Positions 9,649 to 17,995 of a stretch of DNA of 64,000 nucleotides are shown in pieces. Position numbers and translations under genes: made by a program. Every line of letters begins with the position of its first letter. Within the stretch, counting starts at the first letter, position 1. The stretch is from sequence record JX128257; one strand, given 5' to 3'. The notes beneath the pieces were generated by a model. The model had not been told where the DNA came from. It ran no database searches and worked only from the letters and a program-made list of their open reading frames with translations. This stretch comes from Escherichia phage ECML-4.

Positions 9649-10329
9649 ATGAGCAATATGTCAGAAAGGTTACTCGCTACGCTTGATGCGGTGACCGCCC
9701 GAGACGAAGTTGGGAAGGAGGCGATGGAGGCTGTCGCCCCTCGTCCAGGTATTGACTTCGATGAAAATACAGGTGAATGGTTTGGTGAACGTCCGGAAGG
9801 GTATCAGCCGATTCCTGAACCTCCATCATTGGAAGATATCGCGTCCAAAGAATCCAAGGTTCCGGAGTTTGCGGATACTGATGCCACAACAGATTACAAG
9901 CGGATACGCGATACAACATACGCCATGCAGGAAGCCACGATGTTCATGATGGGGCAAGCTGCTAAATTAGCTGCATCTACCGAAGCCCCAAGAGCGTTTT
10001 CCGTGTTTCGTGAATTGGGCGAACTCATGCGCGGCCTGAACAAAGACCTGATGGAAAACCAAAAAACCATCAAAGCTGTGACAGGGGATAAAGAACCGCC
10101 GACTGATGACACGACAGTGGATGTTACCACTTCACCCGACGGGACCACAACAGTATCTGTTGGGAAAAAGGCGAGATCTTCGCGCGATTTATTGAAGACG
10201 ATCGAAGATGCACGCCGCCGCGCTGAAGAAAGAGCACAAGCAAAGGCCGCACAACAACCAGAAGATGAAATCATTGATGGTGAAACAGTTGACGTGAAGG
10301 AAGAAGACGATGGCGTATCAGAAGCGTGA
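9649..10329 (+). CDS. 16: Terminase small subunit gp16
   Basis: GGAGG site 8 nt upstream of ATG; central region (EAPRAFSVFRELGELMRGLNKDLMENQKTIK) resembles T4 gp16 ([30 protein letters not shown]); directly upstream of the large subunit. Confidence 0.65.
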   Translation: MSNMSERLLATLDAVTARDEVGKEAMEAVAPRPGIDFDENTGEWFGERPEGYQPIPEPPSLEDIASKESKVPEFADTDATTDYKRIRDTTYAMQEATMFMMGQAAKLAASTEAPRAFSVFRELGELMRGLNKDLMENQKTIKAVTGDKEPPTDDTTVDVTTSPDGTTTVSVGKKARSSRDLLKTIEDARRRAEERAQAKAAQQPEDEIIDGETVDVKEEDDGVSEA

Positions 10330-12520
10330 TATAGAATATGCCCCAATTAAAACGGGGTTCAAAATAGACGATGTGAAATTGCGTATGGACCAAACGTTCA
10401 TGCGCAAACCTTCTGTGCGTGCTCCTCGAGTCGAGTTAATGCTGACAGATGAACAAGAAGACGAATTCGTTGAATGTTCTATGGATGCACACTACTTCGC
10501 CGCCAACTATTACAAGATAACCACGATCGATAAAGGCTTTATCCTTTTCGATATGCATGATTATCAGAAACAATTGTTCCATGACTTTCAGGACTATCGA
10601 TTCAATGCGGTCGTCCAGGCTCGTCAGTCCGGTAAATGCGTCCGTGGTGATACTCTTGTTTATGTCTATGATACAATCAGTCAACAAGAGTTGCATCTCA
10701 CCATAGAAGAGCTTCACAAGCGCTTCGAAGGACCGAACCATGCTGTGCCACTGAATACCATTGGCAACCACAATAAGTTTGTAGACAGCCGTTTCGGGAA
10801 ACGATATTTTGTTGAGTCCGACACTGGCTGGGTTCCGGTTATTGCCGCTCATAAAACGAAAGAATACGCTGAATACGTGGTCAGGACTGAAACCGGACGC
10901 ACAATTCATGTCGCAGATGAGCACATGTTCTTCAATGAATATGGGCGCGAAGTATTTGCTAAAGACATGGAGGCTGGAGATGCCATAATGACCCAGGAGG
11001 GAATAGAATTCATCTCTGAGATCTGGGAGACTGGTGAGTACCACCACATGTATGACTTGCAAGTCAAGTCCAGCGATCAACGTTATTACACGAATGGGTT
11101 CCTCAGCCATAATACCACGGTCGTGGCTGCGTTTCTTCTTTGGTATGCGATGTTCCACTCAGACAAAGAAATCGCGGTACTGGCAAACAAAGAGAAACAA
11201 GCGATTGAAATTCTTGACCGTATCAGGAAGGCGTATCAGGACCTCCCATTCTTCCTTCAGCAGGGTTGTGAGAAGTTTGGTTCTACACTGATAGAGTTTG
11301 AGAACGGCTCTAAGATATATGCTTATGCAACGTCTTCGGACTCTATTCGTGGTCGTTCTGTATCTCTCTTGTACGTGGACGAAGTCGCATTCATCGAAAA
11401 TGACTTTGAATTTTGGGAATCAACATTCCCAGCGATCGCATCTGCTGATACTTCACGTTGTATTCTGACCAGTACTCCGAAAGGCCAGCGAGGGTTGTTC
11501 TATGATATCGTCACCAAAGCAGACCCGCGCCATCCGCAATACAACGACTTCCATCTTACCGAAGTCCCTTGGTACAAGGTTCCGGCGTACACCAAAGACC
11601 CTGATTGGGAAACCAAACAACGCGCTCGTCTGGGGGATGCCCGTTTTGACCAGGAATTTGGAATCAAGTTCCGTGGTTCTGTAGGTTCATTGATACCAGC
11701 CAAATGCTTGGATAAAATGACATCCAAGTTATATCGAGAGCCTAATGAGTTCACCAAAATTTACAAGGAATATGACCCGCAACGCATCTACTTCGGGATC
11801 GCAGATACGGGGAAAGGTGTTGAAGGAGATTATTCGGTTCTGACAATTCTGGATATAACGGAATACCCGCATGTCATAGCGGCCAAGTACAGGAACAATA
11901 CAATACCTCCGATGATGTATGCATACACGATAGCTGATATGTGTACTGAATACGGGGAGTGTCCAGTCCTTGTAGAAACCAACAACGACGTTGGTGGACA
12001 GGTTATTACAATCTTGTATCAAGAAATTGAGTATCCAGAGATTATATTCACGTCGACGGATAACAAAGGGACAGGGAAACGGATTGGTGGTCGTAAACCA
12101 GAGCCAGGCATTAACACCAACAGGAAAGTGCGATCTATTGGTTGTGCTAACCTGAAAGCGCTTATTGAGAAAGAAATGTTGGTGATTGAAGATCAAGACA
12201 CGATAGATGAACTCAGCACATTCGTGTTCCGTGGTGCGCGTTATGAAGCAGATGATGGATGTCACGACGACTGCGTTATGCCGTTGGTATTATATTCTTG
12301 GGCAGTTAAACAAGAATGGTTCAGTGATCTGACTTCTACCAGTATTTCTCAAGACATGAGAAATAGAATGTCTTCGACTGAGTCACAACAAGTATTCCCA
12401 TTTGGTGGTTTAGTCGTGGGAGACACTCCATCTGGAACTGAGCATCTCCCTGGGTTCGGTGGTGTTCAAGTCTTCGACGAACGTTCAGGGATGACAATGG
12501 ACGAGTGGTTTAAGAATTGA
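10310..12520 (+). CDS. 17: Terminase large subunit gp17, interrupted by an in-frame mini-intein
   Basis: Walker A region QARQSGK/TTVVAAF flanks the insertion; downstream LLYVDEVAFI (Walker B-like) and nuclease region align with T4 gp17. Confidence 0.85.
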   Translation: MAYQKRDIEYAPIKTGFKIDDVKLRMDQTFMRKPSVRAPRVELMLTDEQEDEFVECSMDAHYFAANYYKITTIDKGFILFDMHDYQKQLFHDFQDYRFNAVVQARQSGKCVRGDTLVYVYDTISQQELHLTIEELHKRFEGPNHAVPLNTIGNHNKFVDSRFGKRYFVESDTGWVPVIAAHKTKEYAEYVVRTETGRTIHVADEHMFFNEYGREVFAKDMEAGDAIMTQEGIEFISEIWETGEYHHMYDLQVKSSDQRYYTNGFLSHNTTVVAAFLLWYAMFHSDKEIAVLANKEKQAIEILDRIRKAYQDLPFFLQQGCEKFGSTLIEFENGSKIYAYATSSDSIRGRSVSLLYVDEVAFIENDFEFWESTFPAIASADTSRCILTSTPKGQRGLFYDIVTKADPRHPQYNDFHLTEVPWYKVPAYTKDPDWETKQRARLGDARFDQEFGIKFRGSVGSLIPAKCLDKMTSKLYREPNEFTKIYKEYDPQRIYFGIADTGKGVEGDYSVLTILDITEYPHVIAAKYRNNTIPPMMYAYTIADMCTEYGECPVLVETNNDVGGQVITILYQEIEYPEIIFTSTDNKGTGKRIGGRKPEPGINTNRKVRSIGCANLKALIEKEMLVIEDQDTIDELSTFVFRGARYEADDGCHDDCVMPLVLYSWAVKQEWFSDLTSTSISQDMRNRMSSTESQQVFPFGGLVVGDTPSGTEHLPGFGGVQVFDERSGMTMDEWFKN
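10637..11113 (+). mobile_element. Mini-intein (159 aa, Hint domain only) inside the terminase P-loop
   Basis: Begins with Cys (CVRGDTLV, block A), ends YDLQVKSSDQRYYTNGFLSHN (blocks F/G) with Thr at +1; host protein reads QARQSGK-TTVVAAF once removed. No endonuclease domain visible. Confidence 0.75.
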
Positions 12521-12530: not shown

Positions 12531-12572
12531 TCTTTCAAATTGAGCGAAACTCTACCGAGAAGGAATAACATT

Positions 12573-14468
12573 ATGGCAACTCAAAGCTTCAGCGTTGCGC
12601 CGTCCGTACAGTGGACTGAGCGTGATGCCACGCTTCAGACTTCTCCGTCCGTGGTTGTTCAGGGCGCGACAGTCGGCAAATTTCAATGGGGTGAAGTCGA
12701 ACTCCCAGTGCTGGTGACTGGTGGTGAGACGGGTTTGGTGAAGAAATTCTTCAAACCTAATGACAGCACTGCGACAGATTTCCTTGTGATTGCAGACTTT
12801 TTGTCTTACAGCTCTATGGCATGGGTCACTCGTGTTGTTGGTCCTCTGGCCAAGAACTCTGTCACCAAAGGCCAGACAGCCATCACGATCAAAAACAAGC
12901 TGGATTTTGAAACAGCAAGTCCGTCAGCGTCTATCACTTGGGCTGGTCGTTATCCAGGATCTCTGGGGAATGACATCGCCATCAATGTTTGTGACTCCGC
13001 TGGATTCCCGACATGGGAATTCCGTAACAACTTTGCGTACGCACCTCAGTCTGGTGAATTCCATGTTGTGGTTGTAGACAAAGTTGGGCGCATTACTGAC
13101 TCTGCAGGCGCAGTCGGTCAGGTTGACCGTATATCTGTTTCTGGCACGGCAACTGCAGCTGGCACCATCAGTGTGGCAGGTGAAGATATCGCATATCTGG
13201 ATACTGATACTCCGGCCACTTTGGCGACCAAAATTGGCGCGGCGCTGACGGCGCTAACAGATGTTTATTCTTCTGTCGTTGTTAAGTCTAACACTGTCAT
13301 CGTGACCCATAAAGCTATTGGTCCCCAGACAGTTACTGCTATTGTTCCAGATGATAAGGGGCTGACTGCAACCGCCGTGATTACCACTGTTGGTGCATCT
13401 GGTTCTATTATCGAAAAATACGAACTCATGCAGAACACACAGGGTTCCAAAAAGTCCGATGGCGCGAATGCGTACTTCAAAGATGTCATCAATGATACAT
13501 CAAATTGGGTGTACACCTTCGCTACCGCTCTGGCCGCAGATGTTGTTGAATTAGAAGGCGGCGTAGACGACTACAATATCAACCGTGTCGCGGCTATCCA
13601 AGTTCTGAACAATGCCGAAGCATATGATGCGAAGCCAGTATTTGCATACTGTGAAGAGTTGATTGAACAACAGGCATTAATCGACTTGTCTACCGAGCGA
13701 AAAGACACCGTTTCCTTCGTGTCGCCTTTGCGTGATACCGTGGTCGGCAACCGTGGCCGTGAGATGGACGATGTGGTCGCTTGGCGTGAAAGTCTGGTGC
13801 GCGACTCCTCCTATTTCTTCATGGACGACAACTGGGCATACGTGTACGATAAATACAACGATAAGATGCGCTGGATCCCTGCTTGCGGCGGTACAGCGGG
13901 TGTTTGGGCACGTAGTATTGAAATCGCGGGTATCTACAAATCTCCTGCGTTCCACAACCGTGGCAAATACAACAACTACAATCGAATGGCGTGGTCTGCG
14001 TCTTCCGATGAACGTGCCGTGTTGTACCGCAACCAGATTAACAGCATCGTGACCTTCTCCAATGAAGGTATCGTGTTGTATGGTGACAAAACTGGTCTGA
14101 CACGTCCGTCTGCTTTCGATCGTATCAATGTTCGCGGTCTGTTTATTATGGCAGAACAGAACATCGCTGCAATCGCCAAATATTACCTTGGTGAGAACAA
14201 TGATGCGTTCACTCGCAGTCTGTTCAGCAACGCTGTTCGTCCTTATATTCGCCAGCTGGCAAATATGGGCGCGATCTACGATGGTAAAGTCAAGTGTGAC
14301 GAAGATAACAACACTGCTGACGTTATTGCGGCAAACCAGATGGTCGCTGGTATCTGGCTGAAACCGGAATACAGCATTAATTGGATCTACTTGGATTTTG
14401 CTGCCGTTCGACCGGACATGGAGTTCAGCGAGATCGAGTCCGGCGGCGGTATCGTCGCGGCGTCCTAA
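12573..14468 (+). CDS. 18: Tail sheath protein gp18
   Basis: N-terminal GATVGKFQWG matches T4 gp18 (AALAGKFQWG); C-terminal block (GDKTGLTRPSAFDRINVRGLF) matches T4 (GDKTATSVPSPFDRINVRRLF); ATG with AGAAGGAA site. Confidence 0.85.
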   Translation: MATQSFSVAPSVQWTERDATLQTSPSVVVQGATVGKFQWGEVELPVLVTGGETGLVKKFFKPNDSTATDFLVIADFLSYSSMAWVTRVVGPLAKNSVTKGQTAITIKNKLDFETASPSASITWAGRYPGSLGNDIAINVCDSAGFPTWEFRNNFAYAPQSGEFHVVVVDKVGRITDSAGAVGQVDRISVSGTATAAGTISVAGEDIAYLDTDTPATLATKIGAALTALTDVYSSVVVKSNTVIVTHKAIGPQTVTAIVPDDKGLTATAVITTVGASGSIIEKYELMQNTQGSKKSDGANAYFKDVINDTSNWVYTFATALAADVVELEGGVDDYNINRVAAIQVLNNAEAYDAKPVFAYCEELIEQQALIDLSTERKDTVSFVSPLRDTVVGNRGREMDDVVAWRESLVRDSSYFFMDDNWAYVYDKYNDKMRWIPACGGTAGVWARSIEIAGIYKSPAFHNRGKYNNYNRMAWSASSDERAVLYRNQINSIVTFSNEGIVLYGDKTGLTRPSAFDRINVRGLFIMAEQNIAAIAKYYLGENNDAFTRSLFSNAVRPYIRQLANMGAIYDGKVKCDEDNNTADVIAANQMVAGIWLKPEYSINWIYLDFAAVRPDMEFSEIESGGGIVAAS

Positions 14469-14471
14469 ATA
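14465..14471 (+). promoter_or_regulatory. Putative late promoter element CTAAATA overlapping the sheath stop codon
   Basis: cCTAAATATAAG, 33 nt before the homing endonuclease ATG. Confidence 0.35.
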
Positions 14472-14478
14472 TAAGACA

Positions 14479-14502
14479 CATGCCCTCTTCGGAGGGCATT
14501 TC
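14479..14502 (+). terminator. Hairpin (TGCCCTC-ttcg-GAGGGCA then TTTC)
   Basis: Inverted repeat after the sheath gene; it contains the ribosome-binding site of the next gene, so it may be an attenuator rather than a full terminator. Confidence 0.4.
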
Positions 14503-14503
14503 A

Positions 14504-15226
14504 ATGATCTTTATAATAGAGAACATCGAAATGATCGGAAGTGTCTACAAAATCACAAATCTCACCAACCAGAAAGCCTATATCGGGATCACCACACGCG
14601 ACCCAATAGACAGGTGGTGGGAGCATTGCAACAACGCTCAGAACGGCTCTGATTACTTCATTCACCAGGCCATCCGTAAATACGGCGAAGAATCATTCTC
14701 GGTTCAGGTAATCGCGCAGACCAATTCTATAGAAGACCTCAAAGAATTAGAGATCATCTTGATAAAACAGCACGGCACTCATATGTCTACACAGAAAGGT
14801 TATAACAAGACTTGGGGTGGTGACGGCGCAACTTCTTCAGGGAAAGCGGGGGCAATAGACGTTAATACTGGTGAACGTTTAGGACTAATAGATTGTTCAG
14901 ATCCTCGTTGGGATATGGGGGAGATTATTAGTTGCAGACATGGAGTCAAACATAAAGATAATACCAGGTTGTCCAACTATGCCAAAACTCGGACTGGCGT
15001 TAAGAACCCCAATGCCAAGAAGTTCAAACTGATTTCACCATCCGGTGAAGAACATGAGATACATGGGAATTGCAAAGAATATGTGGAAAGCCTTGGGTTG
15101 AAATATTCAGCTCTTTATGATTATATTGAGAAAGACATCCCTGTTCCTCCGCCTTCTATATTTCATAAGAAGAATGCTTCACAAGAACGATTGAACACTG
15201 TTGGGTGGAGACTCGAAAGAATATGA
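14504..15226 (+). CDS. GIY-YIG homing endonuclease (free-standing, Seg-like)
   Basis: N-terminal VYKITNLTNQKAYIGIT (GIY-YIG) plus downstream R and E/N positions; GGAGGG site upstream; inserted between the conserved sheath and tube genes. Confidence 0.75.
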   Translation: MIFIIENIEMIGSVYKITNLTNQKAYIGITTRDPIDRWWEHCNNAQNGSDYFIHQAIRKYGEESFSVQVIAQTNSIEDLKELEIILIKQHGTHMSTQKGYNKTWGGDGATSSGKAGAIDVNTGERLGLIDCSDPRWDMGEIISCRHGVKHKDNTRLSNYAKTRTGVKNPNAKKFKLISPSGEEHEIHGNCKEYVESLGLKYSALYDYIEKDIPVPPPSIFHKKNASQERLNTVGWRLERI

Positions 15227-15681
15227 TATACGCATACAAAATTGAAATGGTTTGTAATGGAAAGGTCTACATCGGTGTGACCAATCACCCACAACGAAGA
15301 TATGATCAGCATTTTGCGAATGCCTTTCATCATGGAGTCCAAAGTGAATTGTATGACGCCATGCGTAAGTATGGAACATCTGGATTTACTTTCGTTGTAA
15401 TTGCTCAGACCGATGAAGTCCATAAATGGGAATTAGAGAAGCAACTCATCGCTCAATATAATTCTTATGAGATGGGTTACAACATGAATAAAGGCGGTAA
15501 TGATGGAAGTCATATGCTGGGTAAAACTGCAGCAAAATTGACATCCACAGGTGAACACATTGGTCTTGTTTCTCTCATAGATCCCCGTTGGGAATTGTGT
15601 GAAATCGAACCTGTTTCAAGTAATGTTCATCATGGTTTCGATCTTTCTTCTATGAAGATTAAAAGATTGACGACTAATTAG
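15223..15681 (+). CDS. Second GIY-YIG homing endonuclease paralogue, shorter (about 152 aa)
   Basis: IYAYKIEMVCNGKVYIGVT motif; shares a DPRW(D/E) block with the upstream copy; start overlaps the upstream stop (ATGA). Confidence 0.6.
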   Translation: MIYAYKIEMVCNGKVYIGVTNHPQRRYDQHFANAFHHGVQSELYDAMRKYGTSGFTFVVIAQTDEVHKWELEKQLIAQYNSYEMGYNMNKGGNDGSHMLGKTAAKLTSTGEHIGLVSLIDPRWELCEIEPVSSNVHHGFDLSSMKIKRLTTN

Positions 15682-15711
15682 AATTGTGTACTCTTATTTG
15701 GAGATATAAAA

Positions 15712-16245
15712 ATGGCGACAGTCAATGAGTTTCGCGCAGCCATGTCACGAGGGGGCGGCGTACAACGCCAACACCGCTGGCGTGTGACTGTAAACTTTCC
15801 TTCTTTTGTTGCTGGTTCCGACACAATTCGCGACGTGTCCTTGCTGGCTGTAACTACCAACACCCCGACAGGTCAGCTGGGTGAAATTCTGGTGCCCTGG
15901 GGTGGTCGTGAACTTCCATTCCCAGGCGACCGTCGTTTCGAAGCACTGCCTGTAACATTCATTAACGTTGTGAACAACGCGCCGTACAACGCATTTGAAG
16001 TGTGGCAGCAATTCATCAATGGTAGTGAAAACAACCGTGCCAGCGCGAATCCAGATGATTATTTCCGTGATATCATCATGGAGCTTCTGGATGCGAATGA
16101 CAATGTCACCAAGACATGGACTTTGCAGGGTGGCTGGCCTCAAAACCTCGGCCAATTGGAACTCGATATGTCTGCGATGGACTCTTATACACAGTTCACC
16201 GTCGATCTGCGTTATTTCCAAGCCGTGTCAGACAAATCTTTATAA
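15712..16245 (+). CDS. 19: Tail tube protein gp19
   Basis: C-terminus GGWPQNLGQLELDMSAMDSYTQFTVDLRYFQ matches T4 gp19 (GLWPTNVGELQLDWDSNNEIQTFEVTLALDYWE). Confidence 0.85.
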   Translation: MATVNEFRAAMSRGGGVQRQHRWRVTVNFPSFVAGSDTIRDVSLLAVTTNTPTGQLGEILVPWGGRELPFPGDRRFEALPVTFINVVNNAPYNAFEVWQQFINGSENNRASANPDDYFRDIIMELLDANDNVTKTWTLQGGWPQNLGQLELDMSAMDSYTQFTVDLRYFQAVSDKSL

Positions 16246-16255
16246 TGTCCTCGGT

Positions 16256-16276
16256 GCTGGGGGAATCATATTCCCC
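16256..16276 (+). terminator. Hairpin after the tube gene (GGGGAAT-cat-ATTCCCC), no clear T-run
   Basis: Perfect inverted repeat; probably a partial terminator or RNA stability element. Confidence 0.35.
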
Positions 16277-16312
16277 CTCACTAATTACAAGAAAATGTTG
16301 AGGACTTAGATC

Positions 16313-17995
16313 ATGGCTGGATACGGCAGAGGGTTCTTCGGTTTGTTTGGCGGCGGCGGTTTGGTGAACGCTAAAGTCGACACCGATAAGTTAGCCCAAA
16401 AACAAGATGAACGGTTGCTAACCAAAGCGACAGTTGTTGCTCTGGACGACGCTCAAGACGGTTCTATAATCCTTCAGGGTGGTGCGAACACCTACAACTA
16501 TGTTGGCGTTGAAAGTGAACTTCTCAGCGTTAAAACAGTTGTGGAAGAATATCAGTCCATGGCTCAACAGCCTGAAATTCGCAAAGCGGTGGACATTATT
16601 GTCAATGATGTTGTCACCTGTGAGGAAGATGAAACTCCAGTGACAGTAAACCTTGACAAAGTTGAAGGGATATCTGATACTGTTAAAGAATCTATCACTG
16701 AATGCTTCAAAGAAGTTATGCACTTGATGGACTTTGACAATACGGCATATCAGAAGATCCGGAAATGGTATGTTGACGGTCGACAAGCATATCATGTCAT
16801 CGTTGATCCCACGAATAAAAAAGGCGGGATCAAGAAATTGGTTATGCTTGATTCTCGTTGCATTCGTCCTGTCTATATCGTTGAGAAGGCGATGCGTGAA
16901 GGCGGTATTGAAGCAATAGAATCTGTAACATTGAAGTATTATTACAACCCGAATTATAATCGAAACCAATTCACTGGCCAATCTGGTACTTCCCAGAACT
17001 TCCAGCCTTCACAGCAAGAACTCGTATTCGATGACGAAAGCATTGTTTACATCGATAGTGGTGAAGAGCCATTGGCCAATGGTATTGTCCCAGGCCTTTT
17101 AAATCCTGCTATCCGTCCGTTGAACAACCTGGTTACGACTGAAGATGCGACTGTAATTTATGCCATCACTCGCGCCCCTGAGAAACGCGCATTCTATCTT
17201 GACGTCGGTACTCTCGGTAAGAAATCTGCTGAAGAATACATGACCATGATGATGGGTAAATTCAAAAACCGCAACGCATATGACCGCACCACTGGTAAGA
17301 TAACAGGTAATGCCCATCTTATGGGTATTGCAGAGGATTATTGGTTGCCGCGCCGCGAAGGTCAGAATGCTACAGAGATCGCGACTGTTGGGGGTGGGAA
17401 TCAATTGGGTGAAATGGATCACGTGAACTATTTCCGTGAAAAACTCTATGATGCTCTAATGATCCCTAAGAGCCGCCTCCAAGAGGAAGGATCTATTAAC
17501 ATTGGGGGTTCTAACCTTGCGGAGATTACACAGGAAGAGCTGCGTTTCAGCAAGTTCTGTGCTGGGTTACGTCGTCGTTACTCCCATTTCTTTATGGAGT
17601 TTTTACGTCGCCAATTAATTTTAAAAGGTGTGACTGACGAAAAAGATTGGAATGAAAAAATCAAGCCGTTTATTAAGTTTGAATTCACTTCTGATAGCTA
17701 TATTCGTGAGCAACAAGAAAACGCCATATTAAATGATCGCCTGGCTTCTCTGAACACTGTTGAGCCTTTTGTTGGTTCTATATTCTCCATCGATTATGTC
17801 ATGCGGAATGTTCTGCGTATGTCAGACGAAGAAGTTAAAGAACAACAGGCTAAGATCGCGGAAGAGAAGAAGAAAGGTCTCTATCCGAAGGTTCAAGCAG
17901 ATGAAACTGGCAATTATAGTGGTTCAGATGTTAGTCCGTTGAAGTTTAAACCTGAGACTCTCCCATTCTCCGGTTCAACAGACGATAGTATTTAA
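16313..17995 (+). CDS. 20: Portal protein gp20
   Basis: 560 aa, immediately downstream of the tube gene as in T4; a late-promoter-like variant CTAATTA lies 26 nt upstream. Confidence 0.8.
   Translation: MAGYGRGFFGLFGGGGLVNAKVDTDKLAQKQDERLLTKATVVALDDAQDGSIILQGGANTYNYVGVESELLSVKTVVEEYQSMAQQPEIRKAVDIIVNDVVTCEEDETPVTVNLDKVEGISDTVKESITECFKEVMHLMDFDNTAYQKIRKWYVDGRQAYHVIVDPTNKKGGIKKLVMLDSRCIRPVYIVEKAMREGGIEAIESVTLKYYYNPNYNRNQFTGQSGTSQNFQPSQQELVFDDESIVYIDSGEEPLANGIVPGLLNPAIRPLNNLVTTEDATVIYAITRAPEKRAFYLDVGTLGKKSAEEYMTMMMGKFKNRNAYDRTTGKITGNAHLMGIAEDYWLPRREGQNATEIATVGGGNQLGEMDHVNYFREKLYDALMIPKSRLQEEGSINIGGSNLAEITQEELRFSKFCAGLRRRYSHFFMEFLRRQLILKGVTDEKDWNEKIKPFIKFEFTSDSYIREQQENAILNDRLASLNTVEPFVGSIFSIDYVMRNVLRMSDEEVKEQQAKIAEEKKKGLYPKVQADETGNYSGSDVSPLKFKPETLPFSGSTDDSI

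Follow-up and report, generated by a model that had tools for sequence, protein, structure and literature searches.

We have analysed a 64,000-nucleotide (nt) stretch of Escherichia phage ECML-4 (JX128257; hereafter the window), a Vi01-like Kuttervirus of the Ackermannviridae, and report on two free-standing GIY-YIG genes that lie between its tail sheath and tail tube genes. The upstream flank is the gp18-type sheath gene (12573–14468, + strand, as are the three genes that follow), which carries Pfam sheath domains (Phage_sheath_1C), stands where Vi01 and STML-13-1 have their annotated tail sheath genes and ends in a TAA stop at 14466–14468. It is followed by open reading frame 1 (ORF1; 14504–15226, 240 amino acids, aa), which is of the full-length type, and by ORF2 (15223–15681, 152 aa), which encodes a short GIY-YIG protein; the two overlap by the tetranucleotide ATGA. 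A second in-frame ATG of ORF1 at 14531 (MIGSVYKITN) is an alternative start and corresponds to the start of most homologues. The downstream flank is the gp19-type tail tube gene (15712–16245), which is annotated as gp19 in all relatives and matched Pfam Phage_T4_gp19 with 25 bits, under the cut-off. The guanine-plus-cytosine (GC) content is 42.5% in ORF1, 38.3% in ORF2 and 50% in the flanks. An earlier note on this DNA had placed the two ORFs within 14465–15681, between sheath and tube genes, and these coordinates are correct.

A Megablast search with 12540–17995 matched 278 phage records, essentially all of them enterobacterial Ackermannviridae. The best matches were Salmonella phages Guerrero, STML-13-1 and FSL SP-063 (99.3–99.4% identity over the full length), and the 1.25-kb region of the two ORFs was 99.8% identical to STML-13-1. 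The STML-13-1 counterparts are labelled “homing endonuclease” and “homing endonuclease with GIY-YIG motif” in GenBank/RefSeq, and the CBA120 orthologue of ORF2 (orf195) was named a segD homologue by Kutter et al. in 2011 (PMC3184105). The pair is an ordinary element of a known kind, annotated before; mild novelty is limited to two points described below, a truncated enzyme that is conserved and the repeat module marked by DPRW.

Nuclease heads and the DPRW module

The earlier note had read both ORFs as GIY-YIG paralogues sharing a DPRW block, and each part of this reading was borne out. In a search with PF01541, ORF1 scored 36.2 and ORF2 39.4 bits against a gathering cut-off of 22.6, and the two proteins aligned with 40% identity over 139 aa (E 7e-25), the DPRW block falling within the alignment. 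ORF2 matched phrog_5123 from end to end (152/152, E 2e-93), and PHROG, NCBIfam and PADLOC models for homing or intron endonucleases matched both ORFs. Alignments with the I-TevI catalytic domain, 25 ORF1 relatives and 9 ORF2 relatives revealed the GIY-YIG catalytic residues in both proteins: the counterparts of Y6, Y17, G19, R27, H31, E75 and N90 (six positions, seven residues, in I-TevI numbering) are invariant in both ORFs. This invariance covers the alignable catalytic positions, the counterpart of I-TevI H40 not being alignable.

The AlphaFold2 models of ORF1 and ORF2 had a mean predicted local distance difference test score (pLDDT) of 86 and 78, respectively, and the nuclease heads of both superposed on the I-TevI catalytic domain, with Foldseek template modelling (TM) scores of 0.73–0.75 for the ORF2 model. 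In a sequence search of solved structures, the single proteins gave a marginal I-TevI match (E 0.17), which reached E 1.9e-7 when the family profile was used. ORF1 and ORF2 are free-standing genes of GIY-YIG homing-endonuclease type.

In ORF1, the nuclease domain (aa 12–105) is followed by a DPRW module (aa 112–144; 14837–14935, + strand) and by a helix and C-terminal domain (aa ~150–240; 14951–15223). This C-terminal region of ~90 residues folds confidently in the model (pLDDT 74–92). The last 98 residues had no Pfam match at E ≤ 1, a PDB profile search returned no credible match for the region, and any identity given to the domain is weakly supported. ORF2 consists of a nuclease head (aa 1–95; 15223–15507), a DPRW module (aa 99–131; 15517–15615, + strand) and a loosely conserved tail. 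Its codon 22 (15286–15288), a non-catalytic position, encodes His in the window (TNHPQRR) and Asp (TNDPQRR) in Vi01, SJ2, STML-13-1, CBA120, rabagast and both Taipeivirus copies.

When compared with I-TevI, the endonuclease of the T4 td intron, the two proteins share the conserved counterparts of Y6, Y17, R27, H31, E75 and N90, and ORF1 shares the two-part plan of a nuclease joined through a linker to what would be a DNA-binding region. They differ from it in lying outside any intron and in having a DPRW beta-module as linker, whereas that of I-TevI is a zinc finger. ORF2, which ends after the DPRW module, would correspond to the nuclease-plus-linker fragment of I-TevI, kept by selection.

The DPRW block common to both ORFs is a module of ~33 aa, which forms a small three-stranded unit in both models (pLDDT 86–89 in ORF2). 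We have searched 1.84 billion representative proteins with an ORF2-family profile. At E ≤ 1e-30 there were two hits, the representative of the family itself and P0094, a 230-aa full-length relative. The search also retrieved metagenomic proteins with four to seven tandem copies of the ~33-aa unit (consensus GKaAAxxxxTGExLGxVxxxDPRWkTGEI), placed behind heads that are GIY-YIG (P0187), SegE-like (P0096, P0099 and P0111) or HNH (P0102). Nuclease-associated modular DNA-binding domains are defined by their association with different nuclease heads. Since DPRW units stand behind such different heads, the module is probably DNA-binding, and ORF2 probably keeps one DNA-contacting module. The unit is covered by no Pfam-A model; a tblastn search of cultured phages with the repeat array found no arrays, only the single-copy Ackermannviridae genes, and a literature search for the DPRW motif returned annotation-level mentions only. 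The module is a candidate new modular DNA-binding repeat, of possible practical interest because GIY-YIG heads are used in engineered nucleases.

Junction occupancy and the maintenance of ORF2

We have surveyed the junction by searching with the sheath 3' end, the insert and the tube gene, and have then inspected 16 loci. The sheath gene directly adjoins the tube gene in P46FS4, MK-13 and phiEa2809, which supports the proposal of the earlier note that the two ORFs were inserted between genes that normally adjoin. Nor are the same two genes universal at this place: among ~280 records, ORF1 was present in 48 (a count that takes in ORF1 or ORF1-like genes, in at least four genera), ORF2 in 210 and both in 24. 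The sheath–tube gap is a hotspot for homing endonucleases, and among relatives we count at least eight states of it. It is empty in P46FS4, where 78 nt separate sheath from tube, and in MK-13 and phiEa2809, with similar spans. ORF2 stands alone in Vi01, CBA120, 0507-KN2-1 and 3M, and together with ORF1 in the window, STML-13-1, rabagast, FKP10 and phiMAM1. A reverse-strand GIY-YIG gene is accompanied by ORF2 in SJ2 and occurs without it in Se-I. The remaining states are an ORF1-like gene only (allotria and XF4), a full-length ORF2-like gene of 252 aa (SeKF_19) and a large reverse-strand endonuclease of another class (Mutine and PP35).

In the empty allele, the sheath stop is followed by the hairpin ATGCCCTCTTCGGAGGGCA, a short spacer, the box ACTAATTAGAATTGTGTAA and the ribosome-binding site of the tube gene, and this tube-leader box is kept in every occupied allele. 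In Ackermannviridae, the interval from the sheath terminator hairpin to the candidate promoter box of the tube gene would be a preferred landing site for free-standing homing endonuclease genes.

The reverse-strand GIY-YIG gene of SJ2 (L002, 2457–3245) and Se-I (L006, 2128–2922) encodes a third paralogue of 262–264 aa, found with or without ORF2, which has the C-terminal motifs …SP.GEEYE…NTTGW in common with ORF1. The ~590-aa reverse-strand endonuclease of Mutine (L008, 4734–6898) and PP35 (L009, 4627–6417) has DUF7487 and DUF559 / restriction-endonuclease-like motifs, and in Mutine it is adjoined by an additional 120-aa ORF. By position, it matches the Hef-like F-LimVIII of LIMEstone1, a Dickeya phage of the Ackermannviridae with 11 free-standing F-Lim homing endonuclease genes (PMC3296691). 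LIMEstone1 offers a parallel within the same virus family: F-LimVIII lies at the sheath–tube junction on the opposite strand, a place that is taken by an ORF1-like gene in XF4, a phage of the same species. F-LimVIII differs in nuclease class, as its DUF7487 and restriction-endonuclease-like motifs are not those of a GIY-YIG enzyme.

ORF2 had been described as apparently truncated and, on that ground, as consistent with decay. The first part stood: ORF2 lacks ~75–90 C-terminal residues relative to ORF1 and to the full-length proteins of SeKF_19 and P0094, with no region matching ORF1 residues ~165–240. The second part was not supported; the reading of the earlier note was otherwise largely correct. 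ORF2 has a length of 151–156 aa in Kuttervirus, Taipeivirus and Miltonvirus, and its family comprises nine protein clusters within this length range, down to 54% identity, plus one fragment and one longer start call. Besides the aligned catalytic residues, 20 of the 34 DPRW-module positions and most of residues 96–131 are invariant across the family. The ratio of nonsynonymous (dN) to synonymous (dS) divergence between the Kuttervirus and Taipeivirus copies was ~0.09 for the gene as a whole, with ~0.095 for its nuclease head and 0.05 for its DPRW module; these values are rough because between-genus dS is near saturation (1.0–1.9). Between the window and Klebsiella phage FKP10, which belongs to another genus, dS was 1.25 for ORF2, 1.23 for the sheath gene and 1.28 for the tube gene. 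As its dS equals that of the flanks, ORF2 would have been resident since before the Kuttervirus/Taipeivirus split, and we propose that a gene so long under purifying selection encodes a working protein.

Between genera, the history of ORF2 is vertical-like; within Kuttervirus it is homogenised. There, ORF2 is 95–99% identical in 109 records, and the 5.4-kb region is 90–95% identical in 117 records. Between the window and rabagast, its dS is 0 and that of the flanks 0.28–0.48. This uniformity points to recent spread by gene conversion, either through an activity of its own or by hitch-hiking on neighbouring endonucleases.

ORF2 probably descended from a full-length endonuclease of the SeKF_19/P0094 type. 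The first ~130 residues of the 252-aa SeKF_19 (L007, 2103–2861) and 230-aa P0094 proteins are ORF2-like, including TGEHIGQVSLTDPRWE, identical to that of the Serratia ORF2, and their C-terminus is ORF1-like (…RLNTTGWQLIRIV), so that they may be a chimera or else represent the ancestral form of ORF2 before its truncation. In the DNA, nt 10–392 of ORF2 match nt 79–458 of SeKF_19, and nt 431–482 match nt 722–773; between these collinear matches, 263 nt of SeKF_19 and 38 nt of ORF2 are left out. Moreover, the ORF2 of 3M ends in ...RIV, as the full-length genes do. An internal deletion of ~225 nt may have removed the ~75 codons of the putative C-terminal DNA-binding part, leaving the head and one DPRW module. 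We rate this model no higher than plausible, because most of the second match falls within the promoter box, which is conserved in every allele.

The selected gene may be a minimal endonuclease that is still spreading, or a phage-beneficial nuclease that hitch-hikes on the homing of its neighbours. That ORF2-type proteins form a distinct, selected minimal GIY-YIG class (a head with one DPRW module, still mobile or domesticated), with the DPRW module as an uncurated nuclease-associated DNA-binding repeat that forms its arrays in uncultured phages, we regard as a tentative idea that has the odds against it. As a truncated endonuclease conserved under selection, ORF2 is a tractable case for how selfish nucleases become minimal or domesticated.

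Outright domestication seems unlikely. The T4 enzyme EndoII is a small GIY-YIG nuclease that attacks unmodified host DNA. A domesticated ORF2 might likewise attack unmodified host DNA, or it might exclude or out-compete co-infecting relatives, perhaps as an oligomer with the DPRW module contacting DNA. Such a role would agree with purifying selection at a fixed position in three genera, with the lack of a C-terminal targeting domain and with the modified thymidine of ViI-type phages (PMC6449724). However, ORF2 is dispensable: Agtrevirus, the two Limestonevirus members that we examined (PP35 and XF4) and several Kutterviruses do without it. It also lies among late structural genes and not among early ones. 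The homogenisation within Kuttervirus can be explained equally well by selection and by spread through gene conversion. Finally, the closest structural match of ORF2 is the homing enzyme I-TevI and not EndoII, and an EndoII-like identity was set aside on this closer fold.

The decay reading, in which ORF2 would be the remnant of a homing endonuclease that has lost its DNA-binding region and is drifting to loss, appears very unlikely. It can draw on the missing counterpart of ORF1 residues ~165–240, the existence of the full-length relatives SeKF_19 and P0094, a poorly conserved stretch of the last ~20 residues (dN ~0.28) and the absence of ORF2 from the Kutterviruses allotria, SeKF_19, Se-I and Mutine. 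Against it stand the between-genus ratio and flank-like dS given above, the length fixed down to 54% identity, the invariant catalytic and DPRW positions, and the coverage of at least 80% of the gene in 196 of the 210 records. ORF2 may also be compared with defunct or truncated homing endonuclease genes that survive by hitch-hiking, such as I-TevIII of T4, mobilised in trans by MobE (PMC2790892). It resembles such genes in lacking part of the full-length architecture, in adjoining sites of active-looking endonuclease genes (ORF1 and the reverse-strand GIY-YIG gene) and in having DNA more uniform within Kuttervirus than its flanks, but purifying selection and invariant catalytic residues would be unexpected in a purely defunct passenger.

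Probable mobility of ORF1, and its leader

The history of ORF1 differs from that of ORF2. In the same comparison of the window with FKP10, the dS of ORF1 was 0.30, four times lower than that of ORF2 and the flanks, and its dN/dS was 0.05–0.14, consistent with purifying selection. By its patchy distribution and its GC content, ORF1 looks recently acquired, mobile and foreign.

The sheath gene next to ORF1 bears a matching footprint. Between the window and the ORF1-less Vi01, 21 of the 32 sheath mismatches fall within the last 97 nt (binomial P 6e-20), with flanks that are ~99% identical. These form a divergent, nearly all-synonymous 88-nt tract at the sheath 3' end (14378–14465, + strand), with I605V as the single amino-acid change. 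Rabagast and CBA120 do not differ at all up to nt 1373 of the sheath gene, and their 63 mismatches all come later; between FKP10 and KN2-1, two clusters beyond nt 1539 account for 17 of the 25 sheath mismatches. The alleles with ORF1 all share ATCGTCGCGGCGTCCTAA; their sheath genes agree over the final 18 nt, and they have in common a hairpin that we call type A, whereas ORF1-less Kuttervirus and Taipeivirus alleles carry another sheath end and another terminator, AACCCCGCTTCGGCGGGG. The clustering in three independent pairs with and without ORF1 is consistent with co-conversion, with the direction of exchange inferred. The tract at 14378–14465 would be a co-conversion tract that arrived with ORF1, and is a probable target or immunity region of the enzyme.

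The type-A hairpin, ATGCCCTC-TTCG-GAGGGCAT, occupies 14480–14499 (+ strand) and may serve as sheath terminator or stabiliser. RNA folding of 14472–14540 gave -20.5 kcal/mol (z -3.3). The hairpin recurs in P46FS4, whose site is empty, as well as in 3M, allotria, FKP10 and rabagast. Its 3' arm carries the GGAGGG Shine-Dalgarno sequence of ORF1 (14491–14496), 7 nt before the ATG at 14504, so that the ribosome-binding site would be sequestered and a low translation of ORF1 would be expected. The arrangement is reminiscent of the way in which translation of endonuclease genes is restrained in T4, a literature reviewed in PMC2988022. ORF2 would probably be translationally coupled to ORF1 through the ATGA overlap.

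SegA to SegG of T4 are free-standing GIY-YIG homing endonucleases that spread by “intronless homing”, with co-conversion of flanking markers. ORF1 resembles them in its I-TevI-type GIY-YIG head followed by a C-terminal extension, in its intergenic place between conserved genes, in its presence/absence polymorphism among relatives with divergent flank tracts beside the insertion, and in the promoter-like box and the hairpin sequestering its ribosome-binding site upstream. It differs in that its cleavage and homing are predicted from sequence, in a C-terminal region that passes no curated threshold as NUMOD1, NUMOD3 or a zinc finger, and in a similarity to the Pfam SegE_GIY-YIG model that is under the cut-off (18.5 vs. 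25 bits). By its domain, intergenic place, patchiness and flanks suggestive of co-conversion, ORF1 fits a Seg-like homing endonuclease gene. Its footprint is the one that intronless homing of Seg type, with co-conversion, would leave, given a presumed direction of exchange and a presumed cleavage site.

Two other origins of the pair were considered and rejected on identity, dS and allele structure. In the first, the tandem would be ancestral to Ackermannviridae and ORF1 would have been deleted many times, with no homing involved. The occurrence of the pair in three genera (Kuttervirus, Taipeivirus and Miltonvirus) would agree with this, but vertical descent predicts an ORF1 dS equal to that of the flanks, the ORF1-less alleles differ by more than a deletion, given their other terminator hairpin and divergent sheath end, and other endonuclease genes occupy the junction in either orientation; we consider it highly improbable. 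A local tandem duplication in this lineage, rather than two insertions, is barely credible: although the genes are adjacent, co-oriented and overlapping paralogues that agree in their head-plus-DPRW layout, their proteins are only 40% identical and their DNA can hardly be aligned, each is found alone at the junction in other phages, their dS values for the same phage pair differ (0.30 vs. 1.25), and near-identical phages differ only by ORF1 and the adjoining divergent tract.

We therefore return to a hotspot that holds a mobile Seg-like ORF1 and an older, selected ORF2, an explanation that as a whole we hold with good confidence. ORF1 would be an intact, currently mobile gene in which the I-TevI-type head is followed by one DPRW module, then by a helix and the C-terminal domain. 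It would have entered this Kuttervirus lineage through double-strand-break repair or recombination from a related phage, together with its own CTAAATA box, with the hairpin of type A and with ~90 nt from the sheath gene of the donor; this donor stretch probably gives the carrier immunity to cleavage. ORF2 would be the older resident, under purifying selection since before the genera split and later homogenised within Kuttervirus.

Several points weigh against this explanation, beyond the near-saturated dS and the promoter-box share of the deletion match already mentioned. The pairwise comparisons alone leave the direction of exchange unpolarised, as ORF1 gain and replacement by an ORF1-less allele would look alike, and only the dS incongruence argues for a transfer of ORF1 itself. 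The regulatory role of the hairpin is uncertain because it has no U-run and because the predicted late transcript includes it. In addition, our literature search on the two ORFs returned only annotation-level mentions, with no cleavage, transcription or proteomic work.

With its eight states, recent between-genus transfer and measurable co-conversion tracts of differing length, the locus would be a textbook-quality natural example of intronless homing. Knowing such mobile genes is also of some practical value, since Kutterviruses find wide use as candidates for biocontrol and therapy.

Promoter-like boxes and neighbouring features

The CTAAATA element noticed earlier as overlapping the sheath stop lies at 14465–14471 (+ strand), 39 nt upstream of the ATG at 14504, and is a candidate late promoter for ORF1. 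It is absent from the ORF1-less alleles of Vi01, SJ2 and CBA120 and would therefore travel with ORF1; FKP10 and rabagast have TAATAAATATAAG in its place. The window contains 12 copies of CTAAATA, where 6.2 would be expected for the two strands together. Every copy is on the + strand, a bias that is weak evidence alone because most window genes are on that strand. Ten of the 12 copies stand ~30–70 nt upstream of start codons, among them those at 1758, 8274, 12524 (sheath), 14465 (ORF1), 18003 (the gene after portal), 19221, 28068, 61452 and 62077. The variant CTAATTA is found upstream of start codons, on the coding strand, at 15674 (tube), 16281 (portal) and 58989. The genes behind the boxes listed here are structural ones.

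The CTAATTA box at 15674–15680 (+ strand) lies within the tube leader ACTAATTAGAATTGTG, conserved in every allele including the empty one, and is a candidate late promoter for the tube gene; in 3M the box reads CTAAATA. The ORF2 stop TAG (15679–15681) falls within it, and the full-length genes of allotria and SeKF_19 cross it in another frame to a TAA (…WQLIRIV*).

In T4, the late promoter is a short A/T-rich -10-like box (TATAAATA) that directly precedes the late genes and serves the gp55/gp33/gp45 system. The phages studied here encode gp55 and gp33 homologues (PMC3184105; PMC3220722), and the late motif of ViI-like phages was unidentified as of Kutter et al. 2011 (PMC3184105). Together with the upstream copies, this led us to read CTAA(A/T)TA as a candidate, and it is plausible as the late promoter of ViI-like phages, one that is concrete and testable. 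A literature search for a published ViI-like late-promoter motif returned annotation-level mentions only, and a scan of the locus for sigma-70 promoters and terminators gave counts no better than those of shuffled sequence.

As to the wider gene order, the large terminase gene (10310–12520) precedes the sheath gene, and the portal gene (16313–17995) follows the tube gene. The 736-aa terminase appears to contain a mini-intein of ~147 aa within the Walker A loop (…QARQSGK|CVRGDTL … GFLSHN|TTVVAAF…), with a match to Pfam Intein_splicing under the cut-off (27.3 vs. 35.8 bits). The terminase coding sequence is of equal length in Vi01, SJ2, P46FS4 and KN2-1, and a terminase intein is on record for phages Marshall and Magnus (PMC3853055, PMC6763660). 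Finally, OR844942.1 (“Enterococcus phage Efm 3-10”) and one record named for Pseudomonas are ~91% identical to the Kuttervirus region, ORF2 included, and are probably mislabelled or contaminated entries.

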